DNA of 64,000 nt from Pseudomonadota bacterium (lineage in GTDB: Bacteria; Pseudomonadota; Alphaproteobacteria; Paracaedibacterales; CAITNM01). The notes beneath the pieces were generated by a model, which saw only the letters and a list, made by a program, of their open reading frames with translations, was not told the DNA's origin and made no database searches. Of this stretch, positions 2,611 to 48,130 are shown in pieces. Position numbers and translations under genes: made by a program. The stretch covers positions 170,493 through 234,492 of the forward strand of contig JAGOSL010000001.1 in NCBI GenBank assembly GCA_018062345.1, read 5' to 3'. Positions within the stretch are counted from its first letter, which is position 1; each line of letters begins with the position of its first letter.

Positions 2611-2886
2611 GTGAATAAAAGTGATCTAGTAAGCAGCGTTGCAAAAGCATCTGGTTTAACTAAAGCTGATGCAGAGCGCGCAATCGACGCAACTTTTCAA
2701 ACAATTACAAAGTCTCTTAAAAAAGGTGACGATGTTCGTTTGATCGGTTTTGGTACATTTGCAACTGCAAACCGTAAAGCAACTGAGGGCCGTAATCCTC
2801 GCACTGGTGCGAAGATTAAGATCCCTGCTAAGCGCTTACCGAAATTCCGCGCAGGAAAGCAATTGAAAGAAGCAGTTGAAAAATAA
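2611..2886 (+). CDS. hup: DNA-binding protein HU
   Basis: MNKSDLVSSVAKASGLTKADAERAIDATF...GFGTF...RNPRTGAKIKIPA is canonical HU/IHF. The RBS TAGGAG lies at 2597-2602. GTG at 2611 is preferred over GTG at 2602. Confidence 0.9.
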   Translation: MNKSDLVSSVAKASGLTKADAERAIDATFQTITKSLKKGDDVRLIGFGTFATANRKATEGRNPRTGAKIKIPAKRLPKFRAGKQLKEAVEK

Positions 2887-2905
2887 TCTGCTTTTTGCTA
2901 ATACT

Positions 2906-2935
2906 AGGCATGGTTCATTGAACCATGCCTTTTTT
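2906..2935 (+). terminator. rho-independent terminator after hup
   Basis: A 10-bp stem AGGCATGGTT/AACCATGCCT with loop CATTG, followed by TTTTT. Confidence 0.8.
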
Positions 2936-2939
2936 AAAT

Positions 2940-3014
2940 GGGTGATTAGCTCAGCGGTAGAGCGTCTCGTTTACACCGAGAGGGTCGGAGGTTCAATCCC
3001 TTCATCACCCACCA
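2940..3014 (+). tRNA. tRNA-Val (anticodon UAC), CCA encoded
   Basis: Cloverleaf folded by hand. Acceptor GGGTGAT/ATCACCC, D arm GCTC-AGCGGTA-GAGC, anticodon arm TCTCG-TTTACAC-CGAGA, T arm GGAGG-TTCAATC-CCTTC, then ACCA. Confidence 0.9.
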
Positions 3015-3034
3015 TTTTTCTTATTGTTTTTCTT

Positions 3035-3136
3035 ATGTTTCTTTCAGCTTGTGGGCGAAAAGGTAAGCTTGAACCAGACGAAAAAGATTCGTATCCTAGG
3101 CAGTATCCAGCTGCAGTAGAAGATATTTTGAAGTGA
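3035..3136 (+). CDS. small LptM/YifL-like lipoprotein (lipobox LSAC followed by GRKGKLEP); start codon uncertain
   Basis: The frame reads (I)FLIVFLMFLSACGRKGKLEPDEKDSYPRQYPAAVEDILK. The C-G-[RK]-K-G-x-L-x-P signature after the lipobox is the LptM/LPAM_2 pattern. The only ATG (3035) leaves too short a signal peptide, and in-frame ATT codons at 3014 and 3023 abut the tRNA 3' end. The stop overlaps the next gene's start (GTGA). Confidence 0.4.
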   Translation: MFLSACGRKGKLEPDEKDSYPRQYPAAVEDILK

Positions 3137-4440
3137 AGTTGTTACGATTCTTTGTTTTTTCCAGCATTATTAATTTTCCCATTTTTGCCGAATTAAAATC
3201 AGGTAGCGTTATTGTTGACGCGCGTGCAGAAAAGCTGGTGAACAATATTCTTTCTCGCTTGTGTAAATCTAGCAAATTACTTTTTGTTCCTAAAATCTAT
3301 TTTGTTGTTGATAAAAGTATTAACGCTTTTGCTACCGATGAATCCAAGATTTTTATTCACACTGGTCTTATTATCAAATTTAACAATGTGAATCAGCTCA
3401 TTGCTGTGCTTGCGCATGAGTTGGGGCACATTACCGGTGGGCATATGCATCGCATGAGTAATGAAATGAAGGGCGCTAATGTTGCTTCAGTTATTGGTAC
3501 ACTTCTCGGAGGTGTTGCAGCCCTTGCAGGAGGTGGATTTGAGGCGCTTATGGCAGGTAGTATGTTGGGGCAAAGTGCTGCGATGGGAACTTTTGCTAGT
3601 TTTTCAAGGACTCATGAAAAAGAAGCTGATGCAGCAGGGTTTCGCATGCTGCAAGAGGCAAATCTTGGTACTGAGGGTTTTATTGAAACCTTTGAATTGT
3701 TTAAAAAAATGAATGCATTTGGTGAAATTCCCTATTTACAGACCCATCCAAGCGATCAGGATCGTATTGATGCCTTTAAGCATTATCGCGATGCGCATCC
3801 TGATAGAGGTTCAACGCCAATGGAATGGGAGCAAGAATTTCAAATCATTAAAGCAATTTTTATGGCAAACTTGAACAAGCCCTCAGAAACTGAGCGCTAT
3901 TACTATCAAAAAAATACGCCAGCTGCTCACATTGCGCGCGCAATTATCTATTCTAGGAAAGGGTTGTACAGGCAAGCATTTAAAAAGTTGGATGAACTTT
4001 TGAGTGAATCACCTGATAATCCTTACTTACACGAAATGTATGGTCAATTTTTGTTAGAATCAGGGAATGCGCGTGCTGCTGTAGAGCATTTGCGAAAAGC
4101 GGTGAATTTATCTAGAGATGCTTTGTCTATTCGTTTACTTTATGCACAAGCACTGTATACCGATTCTAGCGATAACGCTCAAGAAGCTCTTGATCAACTG
4201 AATCGAATTACTCAGGATGATCCAGATAATATCATGGCTTGGCTGCTTAAAGTAGGAGCTTATCGCAAGCTTGGACAGCAGGGTTTTGCAGATATCGCAC
4301 AAGCAGAAGCTGCAATGCGTATGGGGGATGTGCAACTTGCAATCAGCCGTGCAATGCGTGCGAAAAAAAGCGACAATCCTAAAATAAAAGAGCAGGCAAA
4401 AATGCTTTTGGAAGACTCTCGTCTAAGAAGTGAAGAATAA
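3133..4440 (+). CDS. M48 family metalloprotease with C-terminal TPR region (BepA/YfgC-like)
   Basis: There is an N-terminal signal peptide, the HEXXH motif in AHELGHITGGH, a downstream EKEAD, and a TPR-like helical C-terminal half. Length is 435 aa. Confidence 0.8.
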   Translation: MKLLRFFVFSSIINFPIFAELKSGSVIVDARAEKLVNNILSRLCKSSKLLFVPKIYFVVDKSINAFATDESKIFIHTGLIIKFNNVNQLIAVLAHELGHITGGHMHRMSNEMKGANVASVIGTLLGGVAALAGGGFEALMAGSMLGQSAAMGTFASFSRTHEKEADAAGFRMLQEANLGTEGFIETFELFKKMNAFGEIPYLQTHPSDQDRIDAFKHYRDAHPDRGSTPMEWEQEFQIIKAIFMANLNKPSETERYYYQKNTPAAHIARAIIYSRKGLYRQAFKKLDELLSESPDNPYLHEMYGQFLLESGNARAAVEHLRKAVNLSRDALSIRLLYAQALYTDSSDNAQEALDQLNRITQDDPDNIMAWLLKVGAYRKLGQQGFADIAQAEAAMRMGDVQLAISRAMRAKKSDNPKIKEQAKMLLEDSRLRSEE

Positions 4441-4833
4441 TAAATTTTAGTGTGAAAAATTTACGTTTTAGAATCTAATATTGTTTGCTGAAATTGAAGA
4501 TTCTTTAATATAGATATTACTTATTCTCTATAAACTAGCCGTTATTTGAATTTGATGCTGGTCGTAAAATTTTATTTGAAAAAATATTAGACAATAAATT
4601 TTTTAGAGCGTTTTTTATAAGATTTTTTATTAATTAATAATAAAATTTATTAGCAATTTTCTGATTTATTCCTGTCTTTGTGGGGTATTTAGTGGCTGAG
4701 TTAATAAATAATTTTATTATAAATTTTAGTTTTATTTTATCTTTAATTAACAAATAATAAATATTTACTTAATTTATATTTAATATGTATTTGCAATAAT
4801 AAAAATTATTAATTATTGCAATGGAGCTTAATA

Positions 4834-5988
4834 ATGAAAATTAGTAAAAAATTTATTTCGCTATCCCTACTTGCTTTGTTTCATGTTACGCAACTTAGTG
4901 CATCTGAATGGAACGTCGAAGTTAACGATAGTGATGTGGCATATTTTACTACTGGGTTAACTGTTCACACTTTAAACAAATGGGGAACAGGACAACTTAA
5001 TATTACAGGTGGTGTCTATGACATGGATTTCATAGATGTAAAGGAGGGAACAGTCTATGTAAATGGAGTGAGTGAAGATTATATCTATTTAATTCAACCG
5101 ATCACTTTGACTGCTGGTGAAAAATATCCTGTTAGGAAAGCTATATTGAATGTAAGGGTAGATACTGGAGAAACAGGGTATGATTCGGGATCGATTACTT
5201 CAGCTGTGGTTAGAAAAATTGGTGGTGGTGTAGCTGTTTTCGAAGGTGCTGGTTGTGAAGTTGGTTATTTAGCTGTACTAGATGGTGTAGCTGTTTTGAA
5301 TGCTGCATATCTTATACCTGACATATCAGCTCAACTTGGTGCGTCAATACAGGCAAATAGTGATATTTCTCTTCCTAATGTAACAATGACTGCAGATGGT
5401 TCAATATCATCTTACTTAATACCAGAAGAATACTTGGTAACAATTAAGGATCTTGTGTTAGCTGGGTTTACTTTAACGACAGCTAACAAGAAAACAATCG
5501 TTACTATGTTGGACACTAGCGCTTCAGGTGGTACGATCTCAAATACTGACCAGGTGGTACTAAATGGGGCAAAAGGAAGTAATTTACTAACTAAACTTGA
5601 CAGTGGTCTGATGACAGCAGAGCAAGATTTAAGTAACGCTTCTATGCCAATTGATGTGTTAAAAGGTATATTACAGGTAATAGGTCTTGGTAAATTACCA
5701 ACTGGTGATATTACAATTGATAATGCTCTGGGGCATGAAAGTGTATTCAAATTGAGTGCAAGTAATCTTGCTGGAATTCCTTTAGCTGGAGCAGTTCCTG
5801 GACTTATGGAAATAAAATCAGGATGTACGCTTGAGGTAGATGCTGATCTTTCAGTTCCTTCAGCTAGTAGTGTAAATGATGTCTTTACCGGTGGTTTGAA
5901 AATGAATGGAGGTTCAACGTTGAAACTAGGTAATGGTGTTAATTTTGATCGTGATATTGTGGTGGGTACGGTTGTGCCTCATATATAA
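4834..5988 (+). CDS. secreted protein with autotransporter-passenger-type beta-strand (PATR-like) repeats and no beta-barrel domain
   Basis: Signal peptide MKISKKFISLSLLALFHVTQLSAS. PATR-like segments include LNKWGTGQLNITGGVYDMDFIDVKEGTVYVNG, VRKIGGGVAVFEGAGCEVGYLAVLDGVAVLN and GGLKMNGGSTLKLGNG. RBS GGAG lies at 4823-4826. Confidence 0.5.
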   Translation: MKISKKFISLSLLALFHVTQLSASEWNVEVNDSDVAYFTTGLTVHTLNKWGTGQLNITGGVYDMDFIDVKEGTVYVNGVSEDYIYLIQPITLTAGEKYPVRKAILNVRVDTGETGYDSGSITSAVVRKIGGGVAVFEGAGCEVGYLAVLDGVAVLNAAYLIPDISAQLGASIQANSDISLPNVTMTADGSISSYLIPEEYLVTIKDLVLAGFTLTTANKKTIVTMLDTSASGGTISNTDQVVLNGAKGSNLLTKLDSGLMTAEQDLSNASMPIDVLKGILQVIGLGKLPTGDITIDNALGHESVFKLSASNLAGIPLAGAVPGLMEIKSGCTLEVDADLSVPSASSVNDVFTGGLKMNGGSTLKLGNGVNFDRDIVVGTVVPHI

Positions 5989-6149: not shown

Positions 6150-7058
6150 ATGCTTGTGTTGAAATTAGTTTTTGAAAATTTTAAAATTTTGTATCTAATG
6201 TGCTTTTTACATGGTTGTGGGTATGTGAGCGCTGGTTGGTACACTCATGAGCAAGCGATAAATAAATACGATGAATTAAATTTGAAGATTCCGATGCCAG
6301 AAAATGATGGCAGGACGCAAACGCTCAATAAAAAAGGCGCCGCAACGGCGAAGTTCGATTATGCTACGAAAAAGTTTTTGGAATATGCCAAGGGAAAAAA
6401 CGTTTTAGAAATTGGTGGTGCGTACGGAGATGTTATGCTTGCCGCTCTAAAGCAAAGTAAAGATACTCAGTATACCCTTAGCGATTTAGATGAACGCCAT
6501 TTGTTTATAGCAGCTAAAAAATTATCTATCGTGATTGATGAGAAAAAGCTTAAGGAAGAAAGCTTAAATAGAGTGAAATTTATTCAAGCAGATATCACTC
6601 AAGCTAATGATATTAGTGAAATTGGAACATATGACGCTATTTTTGTTGGTAGGGTGCTGCATTTTTTAAACCCAGAACAGTTGCAAGCAACTGTTAGGCA
6701 CCTATTCTTATTGTTAAAGCCAGGAGGTCGAATTTTTGCTGTGGCAGTTACCCCTTATGTAAAACGTTATGAGAGGTTTATTCCAGAATACGAAAGACGT
6801 GTACATGCCGGTGAAAAAAATCCAGGTTTTATCACTTCACTGACAGACTATTTGAATGCTGATGTTACTACCCCAGCGCAAAGCCAAAATATTGCTAGCG
6901 ACCCCTTCTTCTTTTTAGATGATGAAGTAATGAGAAAGCTTTTTGAAAGTAATGATTTTAGGGTTATCGAAAGCAAAATGATGCCGCTATCTTATAGCTC
7001 AGCATCTTGGGCTCTTGATGGTCGTGAGAATGTTATTTTGATTGCTGAAAAGCAGTAA
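6150..7058 (+). CDS. class I SAM-dependent methyltransferase (paralog of 19781-20581); start uncertain
   Basis: Motif I VLEIGGAYGDV, then RVLHFLNPEQL and LKPGGRIFAV. It shares LKIP.P..DG...TLN..G, GAAYG, RV.HFL.P.QL and LKPGG with the second copy. Confidence 0.7.
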   Translation: MLVLKLVFENFKILYLMCFLHGCGYVSAGWYTHEQAINKYDELNLKIPMPENDGRTQTLNKKGAATAKFDYATKKFLEYAKGKNVLEIGGAYGDVMLAALKQSKDTQYTLSDLDERHLFIAAKKLSIVIDEKKLKEESLNRVKFIQADITQANDISEIGTYDAIFVGRVLHFLNPEQLQATVRHLFLLLKPGGRIFAVAVTPYVKRYERFIPEYERRVHAGEKNPGFITSLTDYLNADVTTPAQSQNIASDPFFFLDDEVMRKLFESNDFRVIESKMMPLSYSSASWALDGRENVILIAEKQ

Positions 7059-7101
7059 TTATGCGTAAAATTGCCTAGGCGAGTAAGTTGCAAAAGCTAA
7101 G

Positions 7102-8409
7102 ATGAGCTATGTTTTAAAGAGTGTCATTTTACAGAGAGCTTGTGGCAATCTAAGCTATGAATTAGCAGATATTTTTATAAAGAATGGTGTTATTGAAAAT
7201 ATTGATAGCTCAAAAATAGAACTATCTGATATTTCCTCTGATCATTTTTTTGTAACCCCAGGTTTTGTAAATAGTCATTTGCATCCCAATCAGTTGCTTG
7301 ATCGGCGTATGCTTGACGAGAAGTCGATTACTGACTTACTTAGCGCTATGCACATAGTGCAGCAAAAAACTGACGAGGATCGTTATCACCAAGCTATTTT
7401 TGTGTTGATAGACGCGCTTAAAAGTGGTGCAACAAGCATTTATGCCATAGCATCAAAGCCAGAGCCTGTGATTCGTGCATTTAATGATATTGGTATTACG
7501 GGTGCAATCAGCTGCTTTTTCAATGATGTTTGGGAAGGTGAGGGAAATACTCCAGCTCAAATTAGTTTGCAAGAAGTTGAAAGAAATTTTGCGGAATTTT
7601 TTAAGGCCAATAACAAAGATGTGAAAATTCATATTGGGTCTGCTTCTATTTTAACAGCGTCAAATGAATTGCTAAAATTATTTAATGACATTGCTGCTAG
7701 GTACAATACCAAGGTGAATATTCACATGAGTGAAGGTATTGATTCAGTTGAGAGATGTCGTCAGCATCGTGGAACGACGCCAATAAGATTGCTGGATCAG
7801 CTTGGAATTTTAAATGAGCGATGGAATCTTATTCATGCGGCAACTGTTGATGCAGAAGAAATTAAAATCATTGCGCGTTCTGGTGCTTCAGTTATCCATT
7901 GCCCTGTAAGTAACGCAAAAACAGGTGTGGGTATTGCGCCAATGCTTGATTTTTATAAAAAAGGGGTAAATATTGCGATTGGAACTGATGCGTGTTCGAA
8001 TAACAATACCAACAATATTTTGAATGAGGCATACTTTGCAACGTTGTTGCACAGTGCCATACATAGGGACGCCTTGGTTTTTAACGAAGAAATAATCTTT
8101 GAGTGGCTAATTCCTAACGGGTTAAAGATTATTGACTCCAAGAGAAATGGTAAAATTGAGGTTGGCGAGCGGGCTGATTTATTAATTTGGTCATTGAAAG
8201 ATCCGTGTTTTGTTCCATTGCATTATGGGAAATTTCGTTCAGCGTTTATTAATAATGCACCTGATGCTAAGCCACATACGGTGATATTGGGCGGCAGAAA
8301 AGTGATTGAAAATTATACGTTTACAGGTGATCTTGAAAAACGTGCTACGGATGCCATTAATAGGTGGACAAAAAAGGGCCTTTATCAAAAGGCCCCTGTT
8401 TCTTATTAG
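7102..8409 (+). CDS. amidohydrolase superfamily protein (ATZ/TRZ, MtaD/SsnA-like deaminase)
   Basis: Metal-ligand motifs PGFVNSHLHPNQ, NIHMSEG, HCPVSN and IGTDACSNN. Length is 435 aa. Confidence 0.7.
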   Translation: MSYVLKSVILQRACGNLSYELADIFIKNGVIENIDSSKIELSDISSDHFFVTPGFVNSHLHPNQLLDRRMLDEKSITDLLSAMHIVQQKTDEDRYHQAIFVLIDALKSGATSIYAIASKPEPVIRAFNDIGITGAISCFFNDVWEGEGNTPAQISLQEVERNFAEFFKANNKDVKIHIGSASILTASNELLKLFNDIAARYNTKVNIHMSEGIDSVERCRQHRGTTPIRLLDQLGILNERWNLIHAATVDAEEIKIIARSGASVIHCPVSNAKTGVGIAPMLDFYKKGVNIAIGTDACSNNNTNNILNEAYFATLLHSAIHRDALVFNEEIIFEWLIPNGLKIIDSKRNGKIEVGERADLLIWSLKDPCFVPLHYGKFRSAFINNAPDAKPHTVILGGRKVIENYTFTGDLEKRATDAINRWTKKGLYQKAPVSY

Positions 8410-11020: not shown

Positions 11021-11452
11021 TTATGGCAAAGTCCAATTTTCAAGTGGAAGATTTTGGATATAAGAAAAATGCTTTGTATTGTTCGTAACTAAGGTTAAAG
11101 ATTGGCTTAAAGCATGAGCTGCAATTAAGGTATCCATAACCCCTATATCTTTTCCTTGCAGCAAAAGCTCAGTTCTGACTTTTCCATAAAGCCATGCCGC
11201 CTCTTCGTCAAACTCTAGAACGACAAAAGCGGTAAGCATATGTTCAATGGCATTGATGAGTTTTTCTTGTTTTGGTGTGTTTTTGTTTTTAAGGTTTTCC
11301 AAGCCTCTAGAGACTTCTGCTACAGAAATTACTGAGATCGCAATACTTCCTTCGGGTTCTTTTAGCAGACGTTGAAAAATATTTTTATGAAAAGTGTCAG
11401 TCTTTTTTACTAAATAGCTTAGAGTATCAGTATCCAGCAGGTAGCGAATCAA
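11021..11452 (-). CDS. vapC: type II toxin VapC (PIN-domain ribonuclease)
   Basis: MIRYLLDTDTLSY (first acidic residue), EVSRG, MDTLIAAHA and LVTNNTKHF. It has a 4-nt overlap with the upstream antitoxin. Confidence 0.85.
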   Translation of the reverse strand: MIRYLLDTDTLSYLVKKTDTFHKNIFQRLLKEPEGSIAISVISVAEVSRGLENLKNKNTPKQEKLINAIEHMLTAFVVLEFDEEAAWLYGKVRTELLLQGKDIGVMDTLIAAHALSQSLTLVTNNTKHFSYIQNLPLENWTLP

Positions 11453-11691
11453 AATAGGTTTGCCTTATCTGTATAATCTGGTGCATCGCGGAGAATTTCT
11501 AAATCGTCTGGCAATGCTGCTAAACTTTCTAACAAAGGTTTCCATGAAAGATTAACAGGCTCTAAAATGACTTTATTGCCGCATTTATGGATATAAACAC
11601 TTGAAGTATCTTTAAAACTAAACTTCTTTGGTAAGCGCACAGCTTGGCTTCCTCCGGTGATAAATAATTTTGCTGACTCAAAATTAAGCAT
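11449..11691 (-). CDS. vapB: type II antitoxin VapB (AbrB/SpoVT fold)
   Basis: 80 aa. AKLFITGGSQAVRLPKKF is the swapped-hairpin motif, and the gene is coupled to vapC. Confidence 0.8.
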   Translation of the reverse strand: MLNFESAKLFITGGSQAVRLPKKFSFKDTSSVYIHKCGNKVILEPVNLSWKPLLESLAALPDDLEILRDAPDYTDKANLF

Positions 11692-11842: not shown

Positions 11843-11997
11843 GCTGGTTAGATTATCCATAAAATTTCTATAATATTGTCATGGATGCTATTTAAACACA
11901 TTAAATTTGAAATTTAAAAATTGGTTTTGGGGTTTTGTTTGCCATATTGATCGAATTTAGATAAGTTGACCTATCATTTTTGATAGGTAGCTGAATA

Positions 11998-13191
11998 ATG
12001 CGTCATGGCGAGTTAGCTCAGGATTTAATTTCTAATGTTGCACCAGCACGCGCCATTAATAGTTATGATGAGTGGTCTTCTTTAAAAGAGGTTATAGTTG
12101 GTTCACCCTTAAGCTATGAAGCGAATGAGTTGGATTTATCGTTTAAGGTTTTTTATGCAGATACTGCGTATTCATCTTTTGGCTATCCTACCTATAAAAA
12201 AAAGAGCGATAATTCAGCTTGTTTGGAGCAAGCAAAAAAACGAGCAATTAACAAAAGGTATTTAGAAGAACTAAATGAAGATGTTGAAGGCTTTGTTGAT
12301 GCTTTAGAAAAAGAAGGAGTTAAAGTTTTTAGGCCTATTGCCTTGAAAGAAGCGACAGAATTTAAAACACCCTATTGGAATGCGACAGGTATTCCGGCGT
12401 TGAACGTGCGTGATCAGGCAATTATATTCGGTGATGAGCTGGTTGAAACAAGCCCGCAAGTTAGGGCGCGTTATTTTGAAAGTGATCTTTTAAAGCCAAT
12501 TTTCTACCGCTATTTTAACTTAGGTTCTAAATGGACGTGTATGCCAAAACCAGTAATGACAGATCATTCTTTCGATTTATCATATGCTAAAGATATAAAA
12601 AGAGAGATGGTTGCTACAGAAGTTCTTTTTCAGCAATCTCGTTCTGATTTTGATGTGGGGTTTGAGATATTATTTGACGGTGCGCAGTGTATTCGTTTTG
12701 GTAAAGACGTGCTCGTTAATGTGACGACTCAGAATCATGAGTTGGGTTTTGAGTGGTTGCAGCAGCATTTGGGATCAAAATTTAGGCTTCATAAAGTTTT
12801 TAAATTAACTGATAATCATATCGACAGCATGATTTTACCTTTGCGTCCAGGTACGCTTTTGTTACGCAGTGCCAAATATTTAAAATTTTTGCCTGATTTT
12901 TTGAGAAAATGGGATATTATTTACCCACCAGAACCCCAATTAAATATTTTTCCAAATTATGAAAGCGATGATTTGGTGTTAACCAGTAAGTATATTGATT
13001 TAAACGTATTGTCACTTGATGAAAATAAAGTGGTAGTGAATTCTTTATTTCCTGAACTTATTGCCACCTTAGAAAAAAATGGATTTACCGTGATTCCGGT
13101 TCGGCATCGACACCGGCGAATTTTTGGAGGAGGATTTCACTGTTTTACCCTAGATACGGTAAGAGAAAGTTCCTTAGAAGATTATAGATAA
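11998..13191 (+). CDS. amidinotransferase (glycine/inosamine amidinotransferase, GATM/StrB1-like)
   Basis: 397 aa. HIDSMILPLRPGTLLL is present. The C-terminal catalytic-Cys region FGGGFHCFTLDTVRESSLEDYR closely resembles the GGGFHCWTCD end of AGAT-type enzymes as I recall them. Confidence 0.75.
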   Translation: MRHGELAQDLISNVAPARAINSYDEWSSLKEVIVGSPLSYEANELDLSFKVFYADTAYSSFGYPTYKKKSDNSACLEQAKKRAINKRYLEELNEDVEGFVDALEKEGVKVFRPIALKEATEFKTPYWNATGIPALNVRDQAIIFGDELVETSPQVRARYFESDLLKPIFYRYFNLGSKWTCMPKPVMTDHSFDLSYAKDIKREMVATEVLFQQSRSDFDVGFEILFDGAQCIRFGKDVLVNVTTQNHELGFEWLQQHLGSKFRLHKVFKLTDNHIDSMILPLRPGTLLLRSAKYLKFLPDFLRKWDIIYPPEPQLNIFPNYESDDLVLTSKYIDLNVLSLDENKVVVNSLFPELIATLEKNGFTVIPVRHRHRRIFGGGFHCFTLDTVRESSLEDYR

Positions 13192-13287
13192 ACTAATTCA
13201 GAATTCATCATATTGAAAAGAGTAAGCATCGTCTGGTTGTAGGCCTGAAACTTAGAAAGTATCCCATTACTATTGATCTTACCCACC

Positions 13288-13337
13288 AGATCATGCCCTC
13301 GTTGGGGGCTAAGGATGAAGCGTTTTAAAGCAGTTTG
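13288..13337 (+). repeat. GC-rich hairpin repeat, copy B
   Basis: AGATCATGCCCTCGTTGGGGGCTAAGGATGAAGCG...CAGTTTG. The hairpin is GCCCTC-GTT-GGGGGC. It lies between the amidinotransferase and the HK. Confidence 0.5.
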
Positions 13338-13394
13338 ACTTATTAAAAAATAGGAATATCTTATACGTTAATGTGAATAAAAAGGCAAAATAAA

Positions 13395-14657
13395 ATGCTT
13401 GAAAAGATTTTATCTTTTTCTGCAAAACGTGTTGAGCTGTTTGGTGCTCAATATAAAGCTTATGGAACCTTGGGTCTTATTAATTTTCCAGTGGCATACT
13501 TTATTTTGCATAACGCTATGCACCAGGATGAGAGTATAGGGCTGCGTTTATGCGCTGCTGTTTTATGTGTGCCTTTGGCTTTTCATACATACCTGCCTGA
13601 AAAATTTAAACCCTACCTTCCTTTGTATTGGCATGGAGTTCTAACGTATAGTTTTCCATTTTTTTGTACTTATATGCTTTTGAAAAATAATGTCTCTTTA
13701 GGATGGCTTACCAATGCGTCGCTAGCACTATTTATTTTTATACTGTTGGTTGATTGGTTAATGTTTGCCATTATTGTTTTTTTTGGAGCAGGGTTAGGGA
13801 TTGCGGCATATGCCATTTTCCATGGCTTTGCGAATTTTTATGTGCAGGCAAGTACAGATGATATTTCGCTAGCATGTAATCAATATTCTTTCATCATTAT
13901 TGTGGGGATTTTTTTCTCACGACATAAAGAGATTGTGAAACTTAAAGAAAGGCTTTGCTCAATGGAAAGTCTTGCGGCAACTATCGCTCATGAGCTGCGC
14001 ACGCCGCTGGCAAGTATTGCCATGGTAGGTGAATTGCTGAAAAAGCAGCTGCCTGTTCTTGAATCAGGGGCAAAGGGGGAAGAGCTGCAAAAGGCGTTAA
14101 AATTAATAGCATCAGTGCCTGAACGAATAAGCACAACAACACGCAACGCGTTTACGGTTATTGATATGGTGCTGATGAACCTGAAGAAAAAGCCCGTGTC
14201 TCATGAGCATAAAAATTGCTTGATGAGCGAGTGTATTGAATCAGCATTGTATGAGTATCCTTTGGAGGAAAAGCAAAAGGAATTAATTCATTGGGACAAA
14301 AGTGTAGATTTTTCCTTCAAGGGGAATGAGCTGTATTTGAAGCATGTGTTGTTTAATTTATTGAAAAATGCCCTGTATTACATGCGTGCGGCGAATAAGG
14401 GGGAATTGTTTATTTGGCTGGAGAAGGGCGATAAATACAATTCGTTGTATTTTAAGGATACCAGCACCGGCATTGCACCAGAGGTTTTACCACATATCTT
14501 TGAAAGCTTTTATTCAAAGACCGCGAGAGGTACAGGTGTGGGGTTGGCATTTTGCAAATCGACGATGCGCGAATTTGGGGGAGATATTGTGTGTGAGTCT
14601 ATGGAGGGTGAGTTCACGACTTTTGTGCTGACGTTTCCGGTGGTGGAAGAGGATTGA
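13395..14657 (+). CDS. membrane sensor histidine kinase with about six closely packed TM helices (CqsS/LqsS-like architecture) and no receiver domain
   Basis: H-box ATIAHELRTPLASI, N-box FNLLKNALYY, G1 FKDTSTGIAPE and G2 GTGVGLAFCKS. The N-terminal 175 aa are almost entirely hydrophobic with minimal loops. Confidence 0.85.
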   Translation: MLEKILSFSAKRVELFGAQYKAYGTLGLINFPVAYFILHNAMHQDESIGLRLCAAVLCVPLAFHTYLPEKFKPYLPLYWHGVLTYSFPFFCTYMLLKNNVSLGWLTNASLALFIFILLVDWLMFAIIVFFGAGLGIAAYAIFHGFANFYVQASTDDISLACNQYSFIIIVGIFFSRHKEIVKLKERLCSMESLAATIAHELRTPLASIAMVGELLKKQLPVLESGAKGEELQKALKLIASVPERISTTTRNAFTVIDMVLMNLKKKPVSHEHKNCLMSECIESALYEYPLEEKQKELIHWDKSVDFSFKGNELYLKHVLFNLLKNALYYMRAANKGELFIWLEKGDKYNSLYFKDTSTGIAPEVLPHIFESFYSKTARGTGVGLAFCKSTMREFGGDIVCESMEGEFTTFVLTFPVVEED

Positions 14658-14759: not shown

Positions 14760-15737
14760 TCAAGCCGCTCTACTAAAGGCCTCAAATGATAAAATTTGTT
14801 TATTGTCTAGATCAAACCCTCCAGGGCCATACGCATAATAATAAAGCTGATTTCCTTGAAGTTGCTGCGCTGGTCTAACATATTGATACCAATTCGAAGG
14901 GTCAGGAATTTCTATTGTTGCATGATTGTGAAAACATAACATTTTCTTGTGTGCTTGCATCTCATCGAACAGGGGATCAAAGAGTTCATGTGAACTGGTA
15001 ATTGCGTCTAAGTGATCTTGTAAAAAAGTGAAAAGACTACTGGCCTCGCCTTTTTTATTTAAAAGCAAGAACGTTCCTGTGGTTTCATGAAGATAATATT
15101 CGACGATGTTATTTTCTTCAACAAGTTTGAAAAAAAGCTCAATAAATGCTGGGTCTTCTAAAGCGGTGGTTGATTTGTCAAAGGTTGCAGCAGTTGTAAT
15201 AAGGCTTGAGGTTTGTTGAAAGTAGGTGAGTTGAGCTTCGACGATAGCTTTTTTTAATTTCTTAATAGATTCAAATTCATGTTTTTTTATGTATGCTTGG
15301 ATAAGCCCCTGATTAAAAGCATCGATGGCAATGTGTTCATCTTCATCACCTGTCAAAAGAATGCGTTGAATCCATGGATTGTTAATTTTTGAGCAGAGTT
15401 CTATTCCTGTGATGCCAGGCATATGGTAGTCAACAATAATCGTTGAAAGCTGTTTGAAGCGATTGGGGTTATAAACTTCCTTGTACAAATCGTAGATATT
15501 AAAATCAAGGCGCACATGCTGCCATGCATCGGGGTTTGTTTGTTCAACAAGTTGATGAGAGAAAAGTGTGTTTTCTTGATGCGCGTTGATGGTCTCTAGG
15601 GCTTGAAAAGGGTTTTGACAAGGTATGTATGTTGATGTGTCTTCATCAAGGCAGGGGATAAGATTTTCAACTATGCTTTGATCATCGTCGATGATCATTA
15701 CTTGGCTGGGAAGAAAAGTACAAGGGATTTTTTTCAT
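14760..15737 (-). CDS. atypical response regulator: receiver domain with a large insertion plus an uncharacterised C-terminal domain of about 190 aa
   Basis: Acidic pocket MIIDDDQ, phospho-acceptor IIVDYHMPGITG, LLTGDED and YIKKH. About 50 extra residues lie between the acidic pocket and the acceptor Asp. No recognisable DNA-binding output is seen. Start moved to MKKIP. Confidence 0.75.
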   Translation of the reverse strand: MKKIPCTFLPSQVMIIDDDQSIVENLIPCLDEDTSTYIPCQNPFQALETINAHQENTLFSHQLVEQTNPDAWQHVRLDFNIYDLYKEVYNPNRFKQLSTIIVDYHMPGITGIELCSKINNPWIQRILLTGDEDEHIAIDAFNQGLIQAYIKKHEFESIKKLKKAIVEAQLTYFQQTSSLITTAATFDKSTTALEDPAFIELFFKLVEENNIVEYYLHETTGTFLLLNKKGEASSLFTFLQDHLDAITSSHELFDPLFDEMQAHKKMLCFHNHATIEIPDPSNWYQYVRPAQQLQGNQLYYYAYGPGGFDLDNKQILSFEAFSRAA

Positions 15738-16052
15738 AAGATTCAGTCCTTCTTGCAATGAAAGAAGCCAAATTATTCAAGACAGTCTATATAACATAAA
15801 AAAAATAACAACCTATAACTTTTTATAGGTAGCCATACATTTTTAATAAATTTTTCCGGTTCTGCTTTTGTTAGAAAAACTCAGGCAATGTCACGTGTTT
15901 TTCGCGTTAACGATCTAGTAATGCATTTTCACTATCTTTAATTCAATGCGCAGCAACATAGGTTACTGCGGGTAATTAACAAATTCTTTACACGATCTGT
16001 GGATGCAAAAAGGGTTTGTTTTTTGTGTTTAATCATTTTGATGGAGAAATTT

Positions 16053-19525: not shown

Positions 19526-19780
19526 CTCTATTTTTTATAGAAACTGTACAATTATACAGGTACTTTTTGACAGTTCAGTCTGTTTTAATATGATCTGAAA
19601 CTAATGATTTCAAAGCGATTGGAAGTTTTACTATTTTTGCATAAAGTACCAGGTGGACAGTACCGTTTTTTCATGCGACGAAGGACATGCTATCACAAAC
19701 GATGACAGATGGTCATAGTGTGACTTCATGTTATAGTTTTGTGGTTTTCTTTGGATGCTGTGATGGGAAGGATGGTTTCT

Positions 19781-20581
19781 ATGTCTGATTATCATGATTT
19801 TGTTATTTCTGCAGAGTTGAAGCTACTGGAAGAAGAATCTAAAGATTTAAAAATTCCTGCTCCTGCTCCTGATGGAAAAATTCCTACTTTGAATCAAACA
19901 GGGTATATGACACCAGAGAGTGATAAACTTTCTGATGATTTTATTGATTGCGCGGCTGAATGGGGTAAAGAAGGAATCCCCTCAATAGATATTGGTGCAG
20001 CTTATGGTGTTATTTCGTTAAAGGCACTTGAAAGAGGGGCTATTTTAATTGCCAACGATGTTGAAAAAAGACATTTACTTATTTTGCGAAAAAACGTGCC
20101 GAAAAAAAATTTAAGCCGGCTTCTTTTGAATATTTATTCATTCCCAGAAGAAACAGTTTTTCCTGCTAATTCAATAGGGGCAATTTTGTTGAGAAGAGTT
20201 ATTCACTTTCTGAGGCCTGCACAGTTAGAAGTAGCAATAGATAAAGTTACTCAGTGGCTAAAGCCTGGAGGAAGTGTTTTTATTATCACAATGAGCCCTT
20301 ACCATTACTCTTTGAAAGATTTTGATAAAATTTATGAAGAGCGTTGGGATCAAAAGAATCTCTGGCCAGGGGAAATATTCACCATGCGTGATTATGCGCC
20401 ACATTGTGCAAAAGATATTTCGAACTATTTACACGTGATGGACACGCGTCCTTTGATCCAAGCGCTAGAGAAAAGAGGATTAATCATAAAGCAAGCCTTC
20501 CTTTTTGGGTATAAACGTGCAAAATCACGAGGTGACGATATTAATGGCTACTGCGCGATAGAAGCTCAAAAGTCTTATTAA
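19781..20581 (+). CDS. class I SAM-dependent methyltransferase (paralog of 6150-7058)
   Basis: SIDIGAAYGVISL, RVIHFLRPAQL and LKPGGSVFII. RBS GGAAGGA at 19766-19772, followed by ATG at 19781. Confidence 0.7.
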   Translation: MSDYHDFVISAELKLLEEESKDLKIPAPAPDGKIPTLNQTGYMTPESDKLSDDFIDCAAEWGKEGIPSIDIGAAYGVISLKALERGAILIANDVEKRHLLILRKNVPKKNLSRLLLNIYSFPEETVFPANSIGAILLRRVIHFLRPAQLEVAIDKVTQWLKPGGSVFIITMSPYHYSLKDFDKIYEERWDQKNLWPGEIFTMRDYAPHCAKDISNYLHVMDTRPLIQALEKRGLIIKQAFLFGYKRAKSRGDDINGYCAIEAQKSY

Positions 20582-22843: not shown

Positions 22844-23188
22844 ATGAAGGTAGAAATACTTACTGAAGATGAATGCGCAGCCTTACCTGCTCGAGAAAAA
22901 GCTCGTTTACAAATTTGGCCAAGAATTGGAATTCGTTTAGAGAAAGTAATGGCAGTGACAGGGCATATGGAGGATCTTGCCCGATTATTGCGTGAAGATG
23001 AAGGGTATGCTGGTATGTATACAATTGAGGAGCAGATTCAGCGTGCCTCAGATCGACTTCGTGCATCTATTCGAATTTTTGAGAAAGCTCACCAGGTAAA
23101 AGTAGAGATTTTTACGCCTTATAGTCCTTTCGAAGATTATACGGAACAATTTATTGGCTCAATTAAAAAACCAGAGGAAGTGTCTTAA
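22844..23188 (+). CDS. hypothetical protein (114 aa)
   Basis: Clean ORF with RBS-like AAGGTGAG upstream. No family recognised. Confidence 0.45.
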   Translation: MKVEILTEDECAALPAREKARLQIWPRIGIRLEKVMAVTGHMEDLARLLREDEGYAGMYTIEEQIQRASDRLRASIRIFEKAHQVKVEIFTPYSPFEDYTEQFIGSIKKPEEVS

Positions 23189-37831: not shown

Positions 37832-38024
37832 TGGGGTATTCCTTTTGCAAATCCTGCCGTGAGGGTAAAAAAATTTTTCCTTAGTTACTACGTGGAATTT
37901 TATTGAAAATTCACTTTGCTATCTGATTTTATTCTGTTGTATACGCTCGCGATGTCCAATATCCCTTTAAGTATTGAATTTTGGGATTTTTGTTGCAATT
38001 TTGATGCATCAATAAAAGTCTTAA

Positions 38025-38327
38025 TTAGCTTGGGGTGTCTTCTAAAGGGGTGTCAGGAAGCTTGCTTTTTAAAACCCCTGTATTATGAGATAAGTTTATT
38101 TCTAAAGACCTTGCTCTTTCTTCTCCAGTAGTTAGCCTGCTTTCCACTTCTTTAGAAAAAGTTTTAAAGGAATTTTGTAAGTTTGTAATATCATTCTCTA
38201 TGACATCAAGTTTTCTTCTTTCCTCTTTCCTATTTTTCCATTTTTCTATGATGAGCGGAGGTAGTAATCCTGCAAAAAAACCAAGAAGGGCGGGTATTAA
38301 AAATTTCCAATCTAAAGACATCATCAT
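38025..38327 (-). CDS. hypothetical single-pass membrane protein with a coiled-coil tail; start ambiguous (38381 or the MMM cluster near 38327)
   Basis: TM segment FLIPALLGFFAGLLPPLII followed by a charged helix. It sits downstream of rimM on the same strand. Confidence 0.4.
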   Translation of the reverse strand: MMMSLDWKFLIPALLGFFAGLLPPLIIEKWKNRKEERRKLDVIENDITNLQNSFKTFSKEVESRLTTGEERARSLEINLSHNTGVLKSKLPDTPLEDTPS

Positions 38328-38432
38328 CCCCTTTATTTTGATTAAAGCAATTACTAATAAGCCTAAGCTTAGATAGCACAATAAGGTCTTAGATACAAAT
38401 CTTGGTGTGAATTTACAATTTAATATAACTGC

Positions 38433-38921
38433 TTAAATCAGGAAATGATCTTCTTCACACTCAAGTTTGTCGGAAAGAATGGTGCAACTGGTTAAATGTA
38501 TGTTTCCTGTTTTTCCTGATTGCGTTTGAACTTCACAAAAGGTTCCAGCGCCGAAGTCAAAAACTCCTATTACGTGACCTAATATTTTATTATTTGCTAT
38601 CAGCGGTAGCCCTATTAATTGTTCGTAATAGATTTCATCATCAGAAGGAGGAGGGAGCTGATGGTCAAAAATGAAAATTTTACTACCCTTTAAAAGTTCA
38701 GCCTGATTCCGGGTTGTTACTCCATCAATTGAAGCAATAGCAATGGTTGGGGCTTTGATAGTTAAACTTGTAATTGATATAGGCTCCTGCTTTTCATTAA
38801 CAAGAGACCCGTACATAGTTAGGCTATCGGACGAGCTTGCAAAGATTTTAATTTTCACTTGGCCTTTAATGCCATGGGCTGCTGTGATTTGTCCAAGGCA
38901 AATCAAATGGTTCATTGGCAA
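38433..38921 (-). CDS. rimM: 16S rRNA processing protein RimM
   Basis: ICLGQITAAHGIKGQVKIKIF is the RimM N-terminal motif, followed by a PRC barrel. Length is 162 aa. Confidence 0.85.
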   Translation of the reverse strand: MPMNHLICLGQITAAHGIKGQVKIKIFASSSDSLTMYGSLVNEKQEPISITSLTIKAPTIAIASIDGVTTRNQAELLKGSKIFIFDHQLPPPSDDEIYYEQLIGLPLIANNKILGHVIGVFDFGAGTFCEVQTQSGKTGNIHLTSCTILSDKLECEEDHFLI

Positions 38922-39081
38922 CTCACATTATCTTAAAAATGAATTTAGAAGGTTGGGGCAAAGATTTTTCTTCCTGATCTTTGAAAATAGGGTGAATATC
39001 CAGTGAGTAAGGTTACTATTAGTTCACTGGATTGCCACACTCAGTATATAGTCTCGCAAGTAATTCTTGCATAGGCTATAT

Positions 39082-39543
39082 TTATTCGGCTGCTGGTGCT
39101 TCTGTAGCAGCTTCTTCTGTAGTTACCGGAGCGTCTTCTACTGGTGCAGTAGTTTCAGCGGCTGGTACTTCAACAACAGTTTCTTCCGCTGCTTGTGCCG
39201 CAGCAGCAGCGGCTTCTTCAGCTGCTTTTAAACGATCTTGTGCTTTTTTCTTAGGCAGTGATTTCTTAGGAGTCACACTGTTGGCTGGTTTTTTCAACAG
39301 GTCGATATTCGCTAAAAAGCCAATAACGCGATCAGTTGGTTGTGCGCCAACAGAAAGCCAATATTTTGCGCGATCAGCGTCGATTATAACACGCTCTTTA
39401 TTCCCGTGCTCTAAAAACGGATTGTATGAACCAATACGTTCAACAAAACGACCATCTCTTGGTGCAGTCGCTTCAGCTACCACAATACGGTAGAAAGGAC
39501 GCTTCTTCGCGCCACCACGCGCTAAGCGAATTTTTAATGCCAT
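39082..39543 (-). CDS. rpsP: 30S ribosomal protein S16 with a long Ala/Glu/Thr-rich C-terminal extension
   Basis: [42 protein letters not shown]. Length is 153 aa against about 85 aa for the core. Confidence 0.92.
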
Positions 39544-39566
39544 GTGTATTACTCCTTAAACACTCT

Positions 39567-40919
39567 TTATATTCCACGCATCATTGCGCCTAAACCTTGG
39601 CGCATGAAACCCTTTTTCCCTATCTTTCCCATTCGTTTGAACATTGTTTGCATTTGTTCAAACTGCTTGAGCAAGCGGTTAACTTCCATTACTTGCACCC
39701 CAGCACCTAATGCAATACGCTTGCGGCGTGATCCATTTAGGATATTGGGAGTTCGTCGCTCTTTTTTTGTCATTGATCTAATAACAGCAAGTTGACGGCG
39801 AACAAGGCTGTCATCAAGGCCAGCCCCTTCCAGTTTATCTTGTATTTTGCCAATTCCGGGCAAAAAACCAAGCATACTAGAAAGCCCGCCCATTTTTTGC
39901 ATGCCTTCTAATTGTTTGGCCATATCATTCAGATCAAAATGCCCTTTTTCTAATTTTTTTGCAAGCTTTTCTTGATCTTCACTTTCAGCAAGTGCAGAAG
40001 CTCTTTCTACTAAGGCAATAATATCGCCCATATCAAGGATACGGCTGGCAACGCGATGGGGGTCAAATATCTCTAATTGGTCAATACGCTCGCCCATTCC
40101 AAGAAATTTAATCGGGCATCCAGTTACGTGACGCATAGAAAGAGCGGCGCCCCCGCGGCCGTCACCATCTGCTCGTGTGAGGATAATTGATGTTAGGCCT
40201 ATAGCATCATGGAAGCTTTTTGCTATATTTACAGCATCTTGTCCAGTGAGACTGTCAGCTACTAAGAATGTTTCTATAGGCTTTGATAGAGATTTTATTT
40301 CTTTTAATTCTGCCATCAATTCATCGTCGATGTGTAAACGTCCGGCAGTATCTAAAATAATAACATCTGTATTTTGGGTTTTTGCTGCGGTCATTGCACG
40401 CTTTGTTATCGCAAGTGGCTTCTCGCTATCAACAATAGGCAAACTTGGAATGTTCATTTGCTTAGCCAGCGTTTCCAATTGTAATTGAGCGGCAGGGCGG
40501 TATACGTCTAATGAGGCTAATAAAACATTTTTTCCAAACTTAGTGGTAAGTAATTTTGCGAGTTTTGCTGAAGTGGTAGTTTTTCCTGATCCTTGCAAAC
40601 CAGTCATTAAAATGACCATAGGTGAAGGGGCAGCAAGATTGATGGGTTCAGGCTCACCACCTAAAGCATGAATCAATTGTTCATTTACAATTTTTACAAC
40701 CATTTGGGCAGGATTAATGCTTTTGACAAGCTCTTGCCCAATAGCCTTTTCTTTTGCTTGTTCGATAAATTCTTTGACAACGGGTAAGGCTACGTCTGCC
40801 TCAAGAAGGGCAATGCGAATTTCACGCATCGCTGTGTTGACGTCATCTTCTGAAAGGGCGCCACGACCTTTTAAGCGATCAAAGATTCCGGATAAGCGAT
40901 CAGATAGTGATTTGTACAT
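39567..40919 (-). CDS. ffh: signal recognition particle protein Ffh
   Basis: GLQGSGKTTT, DTAGRL, TRADGDGRGGAALS and a Met-rich M domain. Confidence 0.95.
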   Translation of the reverse strand: MYKSLSDRLSGIFDRLKGRGALSEDDVNTAMREIRIALLEADVALPVVKEFIEQAKEKAIGQELVKSINPAQMVVKIVNEQLIHALGGEPEPINLAAPSPMVILMTGLQGSGKTTTSAKLAKLLTTKFGKNVLLASLDVYRPAAQLQLETLAKQMNIPSLPIVDSEKPLAITKRAMTAAKTQNTDVIILDTAGRLHIDDELMAELKEIKSLSKPIETFLVADSLTGQDAVNIAKSFHDAIGLTSIILTRADGDGRGGAALSMRHVTGCPIKFLGMGERIDQLEIFDPHRVASRILDMGDIIALVERASALAESEDQEKLAKKLEKGHFDLNDMAKQLEGMQKMGGLSSMLGFLPGIGKIQDKLEGAGLDDSLVRRQLAVIRSMTKKERRTPNILNGSRRKRIALGAGVQVMEVNRLLKQFEQMQTMFKRMGKIGKKGFMRQGLGAMMRGI

Positions 40920-40998
40920 ATGCCCTCGTAAAATGTATTTTTAAAATAGGGAATATCAGGGGAAATTACAAGAATGAGTATACCCAATATTTTTGCTG

Positions 40999-42192: not shown

Positions 42193-42341
42193 CTGCTGAG
42201 TGTGAATGCTTTTCTTATTAAAGTATAAAGTCCAAATTTTCAGATACTCAAGAAATATATTCTAGGTGGACGGTGCCACCTTGGCGTATTACCTGAAACA
42301 ATTTTTTTATTTCTAAGATTGCTGCTCAAAAATTCTGTTTG

Positions 42342-42356
42342 TGGCATGATTTTTGT
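42342..42356 (+). promoter_or_regulatory. possible sigma54 (-24/-12) promoter upstream of fliD
   Basis: TGGCAT-GATTT-TTGT against the consensus TGGCAC-N5-TTGC, about 40 nt upstream of the fliD ATG. There are two mismatches, so support is weak. Confidence 0.3.
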
Positions 42357-42395
42357 ATATAAGAACATACTATATAGTAAACAAAAGGTAGTTAC

Positions 42396-44243: not shown

Positions 44244-44252
44244 GACTTAATT

Positions 44253-44648
44253 ATGTATAATCGCTATAAACAAACATCCGTCCAAGGGTTAACAGTTAAT
44301 CGGCAGATTGCAACTGTCATAAAAGATATTCATATGAAGTTGCAAGAAAGCGAACGCTTATTTAGAAGTTATAAATTAGCTGCCAGTATAGAAAGCGGTG
44401 AAAAAGCTGTTTATAAATCAATTGCTCTTTCAAATATTATGGAAGGGTATATAGATCAAACGATAAAAAAGAATCAAGGAAATTCAGAAGTTTTAGAGGG
44501 TCTGAAAGAGCTGCAACTGCATTTTAATAGTTTGCATCACACGATTAACCAATATGTTATCAAGCGTAATAAAGAGTTATATGAAAAAATAATTCTTAAT
44601 TTAAAAGCAATGGAAAATTTTTGGAATGAATTGCCTGCTGTAGAATAG
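44253..44648 (+). CDS. fliS: flagellar export chaperone FliS
   Basis: 131-aa helical protein immediately downstream of fliD. YKQTSVQG start and a C-terminal ...MENFWNEL. Confidence 0.55.
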   Translation: MYNRYKQTSVQGLTVNRQIATVIKDIHMKLQESERLFRSYKLAASIESGEKAVYKSIALSNIMEGYIDQTIKKNQGNSEVLEGLKELQLHFNSLHHTINQYVIKRNKELYEKIILNLKAMENFWNELPAVE

Positions 44649-44655
44649 AAAGCTT

Positions 44656-46011: not shown

Positions 46012-46225
46012 GCTCTATCGTTGTTAAAAATATGGGATATTCTAAATCATTCACAAAAAAAATAGCAATAATTTATCCTGCTCAAAATTTTACAAAGAAA
46101 TATGTATTGCAAAAAATTACAGCTATCACTAAATAATAAATGAAAGAAATCAGGCATTACAACAATATCAGCAACTGATGCAACAAATGGCTGCTCTACC
46201 ACGAGCGTGTGATGTAGAAAATAAT

Positions 46226-47931: not shown

Positions 47932-48082
47932 TTGATATTCCTTTGCTTAAATTCTGATTTCATAATAGAAAGAAATAAGGAATAAATTCAAGATTTTATT
48001 ATCAGAGATTAAATATTACTAAATTTAATTGATTATTAATTTAAAATTTTAACAGTGCATTGGTAATTTAAGGTCTATGCTT

Positions 48083-48112: not shown

Positions 48113-48130
48113 TCTATTTAAATAAACTAA

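Follow-up and report, generated by a model that had tools for sequence, protein, structure and literature searches.

An amidinotransferase gene in the synthase position of an Lqs/Cqs-type quorum-sensing receptor locus

In amidinotransferase catalysis, the amidino group of arginine is first bound by a cysteine of the enzyme and then passed to a primary amine. CqsS and LqsS, the sensor kinases of the Cqs and Lqs quorum-sensing systems, bind alpha-hydroxyketones (AHKs) or alpha-aminoketones that bear an acyl tail, and the synthases CqsA and LqsA belong to the same AONS enzyme class as a domain of SxtA. The subject of this report is a locus in which these two kinds of protein are neighbors: a 64-kb window (64,000 nucleotides of contig JAGOSL010000001.1, the whole stretch of DNA analyzed) carries a gene for an amidinotransferase (AT) directly upstream of the genes for a CqsS/LqsS-family sensor histidine kinase (HK) and an LqsR-family response regulator (RR). 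The association of AT with HK is real; the functional link proposed below is read from genome comparison. AT adds a member to an established enzyme family, in a clade for which no characterized member was found in the literature search, and the receptor pair is of the known Lqs/Cqs family. The searchable papers do not describe the combination, an AT that carries its own predicted promoter and occupies the synthase position of an lqsS-lqsR locus in several deeply diverged lineages; none of them was found to link amidinotransferases with quorum sensing or with Legionella.

In Legionella pneumophila, the phospho-site of LqsR is D108, the corresponding histidine of LqsS is His200, and lqsS and lqsR are convergent; LqsR consists of a receiver domain (aa 80-160) and an orphan C-terminal domain (PMC3376566). 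The Vibrio cholerae CqsA/CqsS pair makes and detects amino-modified analogues of the autoinducer CAI-1, and CqsS slightly prefers the amino form (PMC3376566). The window locus has the same six-transmembrane (six-TM) kinase family as both systems, with H199 in place of H200 of LqsS, and shares with Lqs an LqsR-type regulator whose aspartate lies in the same motif and a convergent arrangement of kinase and regulator genes. In contrast to Legionella (lqsA-lqsR-hdeD-lqsS) and to Vibrio, it has neither LqsA/CqsA in the searched DNA nor hdeD, its kinase is directly preceded by AT, and its host is most likely a Holosporales-like alphaproteobacterium. LqsR orthologues are on record in 16 Alphaproteobacteria (PMC10653808). 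Modules of the LqsR family that likewise lack LqsA are also on record: receptor-only lqs loci occur in 20 of 58 Legionella species (PMC8023197), and in Ralstonia the LqsR orthologue PhcX became tied to the unrelated Phc quorum-sensing system (PMC10653808). The Ralstonia case is the nearest evolutionary precedent for the combination described here; there, the regulator alone moved, to the phc genes, whereas here the kinase has remained with LqsR and AT is what has joined them.

The AT open reading frame (ORF) lies at 11998-13191 on the plus strand, has an ATG start, and encodes 397 amino acids ending in FGGGFHCFTLDTVRESSLEDYR. The preliminary description of this DNA had recognized in this end the catalytic-cysteine terminus of arginine:glycine amidinotransferase, and both the ORF list and matches in the PDB bear it out. 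No Pfam or NCBIfam model matches AT, and the family assignment therefore comes from sequence and fold searches of the PDB. A phmmer search of all PDB chains aligned AT residues 19-396 with human GATM (2jdx, E = 2e-48) and StrB1 (5.5e-48), with further full-length matches to SxtG (1e-47) and HsvA (1e-42). When an AlphaFold model of moderate quality (pLDDT 66.7, pTM 0.74) was used as a Foldseek query, the top seven PDB matches were all amidinotransferases (E between 1e-23 and 1e-26), with DDAH and the arginine deiminases far behind at E values of only 1e-9. The likeness of AT to amidinotransferases is far above chance. By alignment, the GATM triad C407/H303/D254 corresponds to Cys382, His274, and Asp227 of AT, and the guanidino-binding pair D170/D305 to Asp139 and Asp276; S355 is retained and R322 is replaced by lysine. 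These five AT residues are invariant among 24 aligned clade members, so that the Asp-His-Cys triad withstood the alignment check proposed for it earlier. The genes for AT, kinase, and regulator are all under strong purifying selection (omega, or dN/dS, of 0.07-0.11). As in all homologs, AT does not extend past the conserved catalytic C-terminal segment, and no signal peptide was detected. Judged by its residues, the ORF at 11998-13191 is a full-length arginine-dependent amidinotransferase that is predicted to be catalytically competent.

The sensor kinase gene (13395-14657, plus strand; 420 aa) is the next same-strand ORF after AT, separated from it by 203 nt, as had been noted at the outset. 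HK contains HisKA and HATPase_c domains, about six hydrophobic segments between residues 22 and 178, and the predicted phospho-acceptor His199 in the motif AHELRTPL, which is invariant in the kinase alignment. Homologs that are 37-40% identical over their full length carry the JGI name “CAI-1 autoinducer sensor kinase/phosphatase CqsS,” and the assignment to this class draws on these homologs and on the features just named, not on a residue-by-residue comparison with LqsS of L. pneumophila or CqsS of V. cholerae. The regulator gene (14760-15758, minus strand) is convergent with HK and encodes 332 amino acids from a TTG start (325 aa in the call of the metagenome-assembled genome, MAG), with the receiver residue Asp110 in the motif VDYHMPG and an orphan LqsR-type C-terminal domain. 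RR matches PDB entry 6sy9 over its full length (E = 2e-48). That entry is labeled only “Response regulator”; we take it to be L. pneumophila LqsR, an identity not confirmed in the searchable literature. Its conserved aspartate is chain residue 128, or D108 after subtraction of a 20-residue tag. Homologs of RR adjoin CqsS-like kinases in six other loci (L019, L020, L023, L024, L026, and L029; loci drawn in for comparison are numbered with the prefix L), and four of the six (L023, L024, L026, and L029) also have an LqsA-like gene. The D108 arithmetic, the layout of domains and genes as set out in the LqsR review, and these homologs beside LqsA-carrying CqsS-like kinases together lend indirect support to the reading of 6sy9 as LqsR. 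By sequence, then, the HK-RR pair is identified as a receptor module of the Lqs/Cqs quorum-sensing type.

The arrangement of AT, HK on the same strand, and convergent RR recurs in L002 (AT 75% and HK 72% identical to those of the window) and in L099 (76% and 72%). In L003, AT (79-80% identical) is again followed by HK, and the kinase is cut by the end of the contig. Adjacency is conserved across gaps between AT and HK of 203 nt in the window (13192-13394, plus strand), 153 nt in L002, about 63 nt in L003, and 10 nt in L099, and across three flanking contexts: that of the window, that of the L002/L099 pair, and that of L003, where a resolvase and a RecD2-like helicase are encoded. Synonymous divergence (dS) among the AT-carrying loci is saturated (1.2-2.8). 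A sigma70-type promoter is predicted upstream of AT at 11939-11967 on the plus strand, with a -35 element TTGCCA (11939-11944), a 17-nt spacer, and a -10 element TAAGTT (11962-11967). An alignment of the window with L002, L099, and L003 shows the same block, TTGC[T/C]A, 17 nt, and TAAGTT, TAAGAT, or TATCTT, kept in all four loci; we infer that it is a promoter, and its retention indicates that AT travels with its own expression signal. Between the predicted -10 element and the AT start codon lies a perfect 8-bp inverted repeat (11969-11988, plus strand), ACCTATCA-TTTT-TGATAGGT, which could be an operator or a leader hairpin; only its left half (CCTATC or GTATC) is conserved in other loci. In the window, no terminator was predicted in the spacer between AT and HK, which contains a weak promoter-like site at 13335-13362, and a search for riboswitches and known RNAs in the AT leader and in this spacer returned nothing credible.

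The locus is polymorphic for the presence of AT. Kinases 61-68% identical to the window HK occur in AT-negative loci (L009/L010, L011/L012, and L100-L102) that share the L002 neighborhood: the upstream gene encodes a secreted protein of about 160 aa, and genes for SDR, dCTP deaminase, and EPSP synthase follow downstream. In L011/L012 and L100-L102, a helix-turn-helix (HTH) gene and a 112-aa ORF are retained as well. Between the upstream gene and the kinase of these loci (spacers of 60-291 nt), neither AT nor remnants of AT were found. The sister loci nevertheless retain HK and RR, which indicates that the receptor pair is resident and AT the add-on. A genome scan with AT yielded just five loci, all distant (48-51%) and lacking a CqsS-like kinase, and in all ten contexts examined for AT homologs of 48-69% identity there is no link to such kinases. 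The suggestion that homologs might never be linked to two-component genes is thus contradicted by the four closest homologs, all of which are linked, and borne out by every examined homolog at 48-69% identity. In the AT-negative L009/L010, the LqsR-like regulator (2620-3594, minus strand) is split into ORFs of 222 and 113 aa, which could reflect a frameshift or pseudogene, with decay of the receptor module, or an assembly error. A 69% homologue of the 112-aa ORF, which in L002 and L011 lies past the regulator and the HTH gene, is found in the window at 22859-23182 (plus strand); the window trio has accordingly been parted from its ancestral downstream neighbors by other genes that span about 7 kb. 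L003 carries, at 888-1349 and 7247-7864 (both on the minus strand), a small gene with a weak match to LuxR-type autoinducer-binding domains and the resolvase and RecD2-like helicase, surroundings that suggest a mobile context for its AT-kinase pair.

The histories of AT and kinase differ. In neighbor-joining trees, the four kinase-linked ATs are monophyletic (99.8% bootstrap) and those of the window and L003 are sisters (89%). In the tree of the HK sensor domain, the L003 kinase falls outside all others, including the AT-negative ones (78%), and a sister relationship of window and L003 receives 0.4%. Such discordance implies at least one re-coupling or move of AT, or of the module, with the place before this kinase type kept. 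The full-length kinase tree places the window, L002, and L099 with P0122 in one clade, sister to the AT-negative kinases. Divergence between the two groups, compared for three AT-carrying and three AT-negative kinases, is concentrated in the sensor: over residues 1-178, identity is 75.3% within the AT-carrying group, 74.9% within the AT-negative group, and 62.0% between them, whereas over the kinase domain (residues 179-420) the values are 72.6%, 75.6%, and 70.6%. Of the 16 fixed differences, 13 are in the sensor (178 aa; Fisher p = 0.0016), and 11 of these 13 fall within residues 1-98, the region of TM1-3. In CqsS, mutagenesis work assigned ligand binding to this conserved half (PMC3376566). 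A Phe/Cys difference at position 166 in TM6 lies near the expected CqsS “gatekeeper” residues, a placement made without direct CqsS/LqsS alignment and offered as a lead only.

The position of AT is that of a synthase gene in related loci. A metagenome scan with the kinase alignment picked up generic histidine-kinase patterns, and only about 8 of its 80 loci were full-length CqsS-like, none in the close clade; these served as canonical comparators. In the distant full-length CqsS-like metagenome loci L023-L026 and L029, an LqsA/CqsA-like PF00155 gene is adjacent to the kinase, and in L025 it immediately precedes the kinase in the same orientation, as AT does in the window. Two LqsA-like tblastn probes, both of which detected the gene beside the kinase in L023-L026 and L029, found no LqsA/CqsA synthase at E <= 1e-3 in the 64-kb window or in L001-L003, L009-L012, L099, and L100. 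Pfam scans of ten mid-sized window ORFs revealed no PF00155 enzyme. In the low-GC locus L019 (5075-8252), a 283-aa ORF without a Pfam match nearly abuts a CqsS-like kinase (38%) and an LqsR-like regulator, with no LqsA-like gene, and may be another noncanonical occupant of the synthase slot. A shared partner was considered for a 283-aa ORF upstream of AT in L013 and the one upstream of HK in L019; the two ORFs are unrelated, the former being weakly WelO5-like.

AT falls outside the described subfamilies of its family. It is 33% identical to GATM, 38% to StrB1, and about 30% to SxtG, and its phmmer bit scores against the three are nearly equal (168, 167, and 166). A database search returned 1,847 proteins at E <= 1e-5. 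The best 120 of these are 55-100% identical and come from cyanobacteria (Nostoc, Moorena, Planktothrix, Aphanizomenon), Streptomyces and other actinomycetes, MAGs of Legionellaceae/Tatlockia, Thiomargarita, Desulfobacteraceae, and Anaerolineae. Most of these carry the automatic name “glycine amidinotransferase,” which is without support for AT. In human AGAT (hAGAT), CyrA, and AmtA, a 300-flap before the catalytic histidine sets acceptor specificity; it reads D298-P-N300-P-M302, followed by H, in hAGAT, D-M-H-P-M in AmtA, and D-I-F245-P-S247 in CyrA (PMC4887976). The AT flap, L-T-D-N before His274, is one residue shorter than that of hAGAT and has no equivalents of Asn300 and Met302. At 33% identity, with a shorter flap and far closer to its own clade (55-80%), AT is not an orthologue of GATM, and sequence places it outside the glycine-specific GATM/CyrA subfamily and apart from AmtA and StrB1. 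The earlier label “eukaryote/actinomycete-type” is accordingly imprecise, AT being much closer to a separate bacterial clade than to either GATM or StrB1.

Each of the described relatives resembles AT in part. GATM/AGAT (1jdw/2jdx; relatives CyrA and AmtA) has the same fold, triad, guanidino-binding aspartate pair, and Ser355, but a longer flap, and the creatine, cylindrospermopsin, and phaseolotoxin gene contexts of this group are not present at the AT locus. StrB1 of Streptomyces griseus (1bwd) shares fold, triad, and a short flap and has the highest identity to AT among solved structures, but its score is no better than those of GATM and SxtG and there are no aminoglycoside or inositol genes near AT; none for aminocyclitols or aminoglycosides were found within about 10 kb on either side. 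SxtG of the saxitoxin pathway (6u1r) is the top structural match, yet it lies in a large toxin cluster with no link to a sensor kinase. Members of the AT clade itself occur in varied surroundings. In a Legionellaceae MAG (L016), the AT homolog adjoins a nonribosomal peptide synthetase (NRPS) of 2,315 aa; in L015 it stands between a MatE exporter and a PhyH oxygenase, with an SDF transporter also present; and in a Streptomyces locus (L018) it is found among P450s and a methyltransferase. In L013 (7050-11361), a 69%-identical AT has on its flanks an iron/2-oxoglutarate enzyme with a weak likeness to WelO5 (E = 4.5e-5, short of the Pfam cut-off) and a mitochondrial-carrier gene of eukaryotic type; transposases lie close by. 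In Moorena producens JHB (L017; CP017708.2, 4492907-4514061), a 64%-identical AT lies inside a phosphonate-type cluster of phosphoenolpyruvate mutase, thiamine pyrophosphate-dependent decarboxylase, aminotransferase, LicD, CDP-alcohol phosphatidyltransferase, and several methyltransferase genes, a context that hints at amidination of an aminophosphonate head group. By sequence, no partner gene (methyltransferase, oxygenase, or exporter) recurs across the AT loci, save an SDF transporter in L013 and L015.

The reading favored here, held tentatively and rated somewhat short of even, is that AT makes or tailors the cue sensed by HK and so is a nonorthologous occupant of the synthase slot. AT would have been acquired horizontally with its own promoter, as the first gene before a resident HK-RR pair, and would be transcribed from that promoter with read-through into the kinase gene. 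Through an amidino-thioester at Cys382, the enzyme would pass the amidino group of arginine to a primary amine, and the guanidino product would be the cue bound by the membrane sensor domain of HK; alternatively, the AT product would be a tailored signal of the alpha-aminoketone type. HK, through His199, would then set the phosphorylation state of RR at Asp110. Co-transcription, functional coupling, and above all the identity of the product with the ligand are what we infer in this scheme. A more specific version, which is possible but doubtful, makes AT the signal-producing arm of a re-wired Lqs/Cqs system: it would either form a guanidino autoinducer de novo or guanidinylate an alpha-aminoketone (amino-AHK) to a guanidino-ketone or cyclic 2-aminoimidazoline-type compound, to be sensed by the sensor-diverged kinase and relayed to LqsR. 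SxtG provides the chemical logic proposed here for an AT paired with an AHK-type sensor, as it amidinates alpha-aminoketones made by the AONS domain of SxtA (PMC12371840).

The preliminary description had likewise proposed that the AT product is the signal for HK and RR; the quorum-sensing families of the receptors, the synthase slot, and four diverged loci speak for the proposal, sister HK-RR pairs without AT speak against it, and the support is genuine, though circumstantial. Several points weigh against AT as the source of the cue. Sister lineages retain HK and RR intact at the orthologous site, where the receptors evidently function without AT in cis, and AT alone cannot build the hydrophobic ligands typical for six-TM CqsS-type sensors. 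No gene supplying an amine acceptor is linked to the AT locus. The absence of LqsA holds for the window and the searched loci. The linkage of AT and HK is limited to a narrow clade (AT identity >= 72%), for which one or two events might suffice. The discordant histories come from neighbor-joining trees only, with a truncated L003 kinase, and the sensor contrast from three kinases on each side. At conserved positions, moreover, only two substitutions (L99F and M225L) set the HK-linked ATs apart from the broad clade; for this reason they probably share the chemistry of homologs in NRPS, phosphonate, and P450 clusters, which fits the supply of a generic building block.

That last point leads to a second explanation, in which AT makes a generic guanidino metabolite for its own cell (homoarginine, guanidinoacetate, or another amidinated amine), its expression merely tied to a quorum-sensing locus, while the kinase eavesdrops on AHK-type signals whose synthesis is encoded elsewhere in the genome or that come from other bacteria. 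The cell could use its guanidino product for synthesis, as a building block or the precursor of a toxin, or else as a nitrogen or osmotic compound. This explanation, which is also possible but doubtful, agrees with the near identity at conserved positions between HK-linked ATs and those in the contexts of L015-L018, with intact HK-RR pairs in AT-negative sister loci, with the frequency of receptor-only lqs loci in Legionella (20/58 species; PMC8023197), and with the conserved promoter that AT carries for itself. It leaves unexplained why AT stands beside the same kinase type in three contexts, why the histories of AT and HK disagree, and why the differences between AT-carrying and AT-negative kinases are concentrated in the ligand-binding half of the sensor; nor is a pathway that would consume the AT product linked to the locus.

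The neighborhood might also be fortuitous, a horizontally acquired AT having landed once in a permissive intergenic site upstream of the kinase and been inherited since with no functional tie. The full-length kinase tree, with the window, L002, L099, and P0122 in one clade, is compatible with such a single insertion, as are the AT-negative loci without AT remnants and the unlinked state of all more distant homologs. We regard this as unlikely: the adjacency has outlived both the saturation of synonymous sites and the rearrangement of both flanks, the gap is just 10 nt in L099, and in L003 a window-like AT is paired with a basal HK in a resolvase context, which calls for a second event that kept the pairing. 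Manipulation of host arginine or creatine-type pools, the other idea of the preliminary description, found no support. An AT directed at the arginine or guanidino pools of a protist host would suit a probable symbiont whose relatives are the protist endosymbionts Ca. Odyssella, Ca. Paracaedibacter, and Ca. Finniella (64-67% identity in Ffh), and the 69% AT relative in L013 does adjoin a eukaryote-like mitochondrial-carrier gene. The missing signal peptide, the C-terminus that ends at the conserved catalytic segment, the wide occurrence of the clade in free-living cyanobacteria and actinomycetes, and the lack of any link between AT and a secretion system in the window make this explanation highly improbable.

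Lqs/Cqs receptors that lack a linked synthase are common, and AT is a defined, conserved, and mobile candidate gene in the synthase slot of such a locus. The hypothesis involves three genes, those for AT, the kinase, and the LqsR-type regulator. If AT does produce the cue, it would represent a new class of autoinducer synthase, and its product a new chemical class of quorum-sensing signal, in protist-associated alphaproteobacteria. Knowledge of the acceptor used by the very widespread AT clade would change the annotation of hundreds of genes that lie in natural-product clusters.

The named relatives of the Ffh protein encoded in the window are Ca. Odyssella thessalonicensis (67%), Ca. Odyssella acanthamoebae (66%), Ca. 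Paracaedibacter symbiosus (65%), and Ca. Finniella inopinata (64%); further relatives are MAGs labeled Paracaedibacteraceae or “Alphaproteobacteria,” together with a large uncultured group at 79-99%. The host is therefore most likely an alphaproteobacterium of the Holosporales type, as far as this protein can place it, and possibly protist-associated. A host among the Legionellales was considered and ruled out, since the named Ffh relatives are Paracaedibacteraceae and Odyssella. The GC content of the window is 37.6%.

The neighbors of AT comprise a LysR regulator, a VapBC pair, a HemD-like gene, RR, LpxC, TsaE, and a pair of an APH-like kinase and an NTP-transferase. By their annotation, the earlier remark that no other biosynthetic genes lie around AT is true within about 5 kb on either side; the nearest possibly relevant enzymes are a methyltransferase and an amidohydrolase at 6150-8409. 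The VapBC-type pair, a 143-aa PIN toxin and an 80-aa MazE/AbrB-like antitoxin with a 4-nt overlap, lies between LysR and AT at 11021-11691 on the minus strand and may mark a recombination-prone spot. Two seemingly paralogous class-I S-adenosylmethionine methyltransferases, at 6150-7058 and 19739-20581 (both plus strand; shared N-terminal motif, KIPMPENDGRTQTLNKKG and KIPAPAPDGKIPTLNQTG, respectively), flank the trio at a distance of about 5-6 kb on each side, and the first is followed by the amidohydrolase of 435 aa. Both are dissimilar to the methyltransferases found beside AT homologs elsewhere.

Four ORFs of 360-470 aa, at 4816-5988 (plus strand) and at 40999-42192, 48131-49549, and 51553-52647 (minus strand), have N-termini resembling signal peptides and no Pfam match; they could encode secreted or effector-like symbiont proteins. 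The second of these, like AT, encodes 397 aa and was considered as an AT paralogue, which it proved not to be. Gene orientation changes from mostly plus to mostly minus near 38 kb, and GC skew, positive up to about 44-46 kb, turns negative there and becomes positive again at about 57-58 kb; the region at about 38000-58000 could contain a replication terminus or origin, or an inversion.

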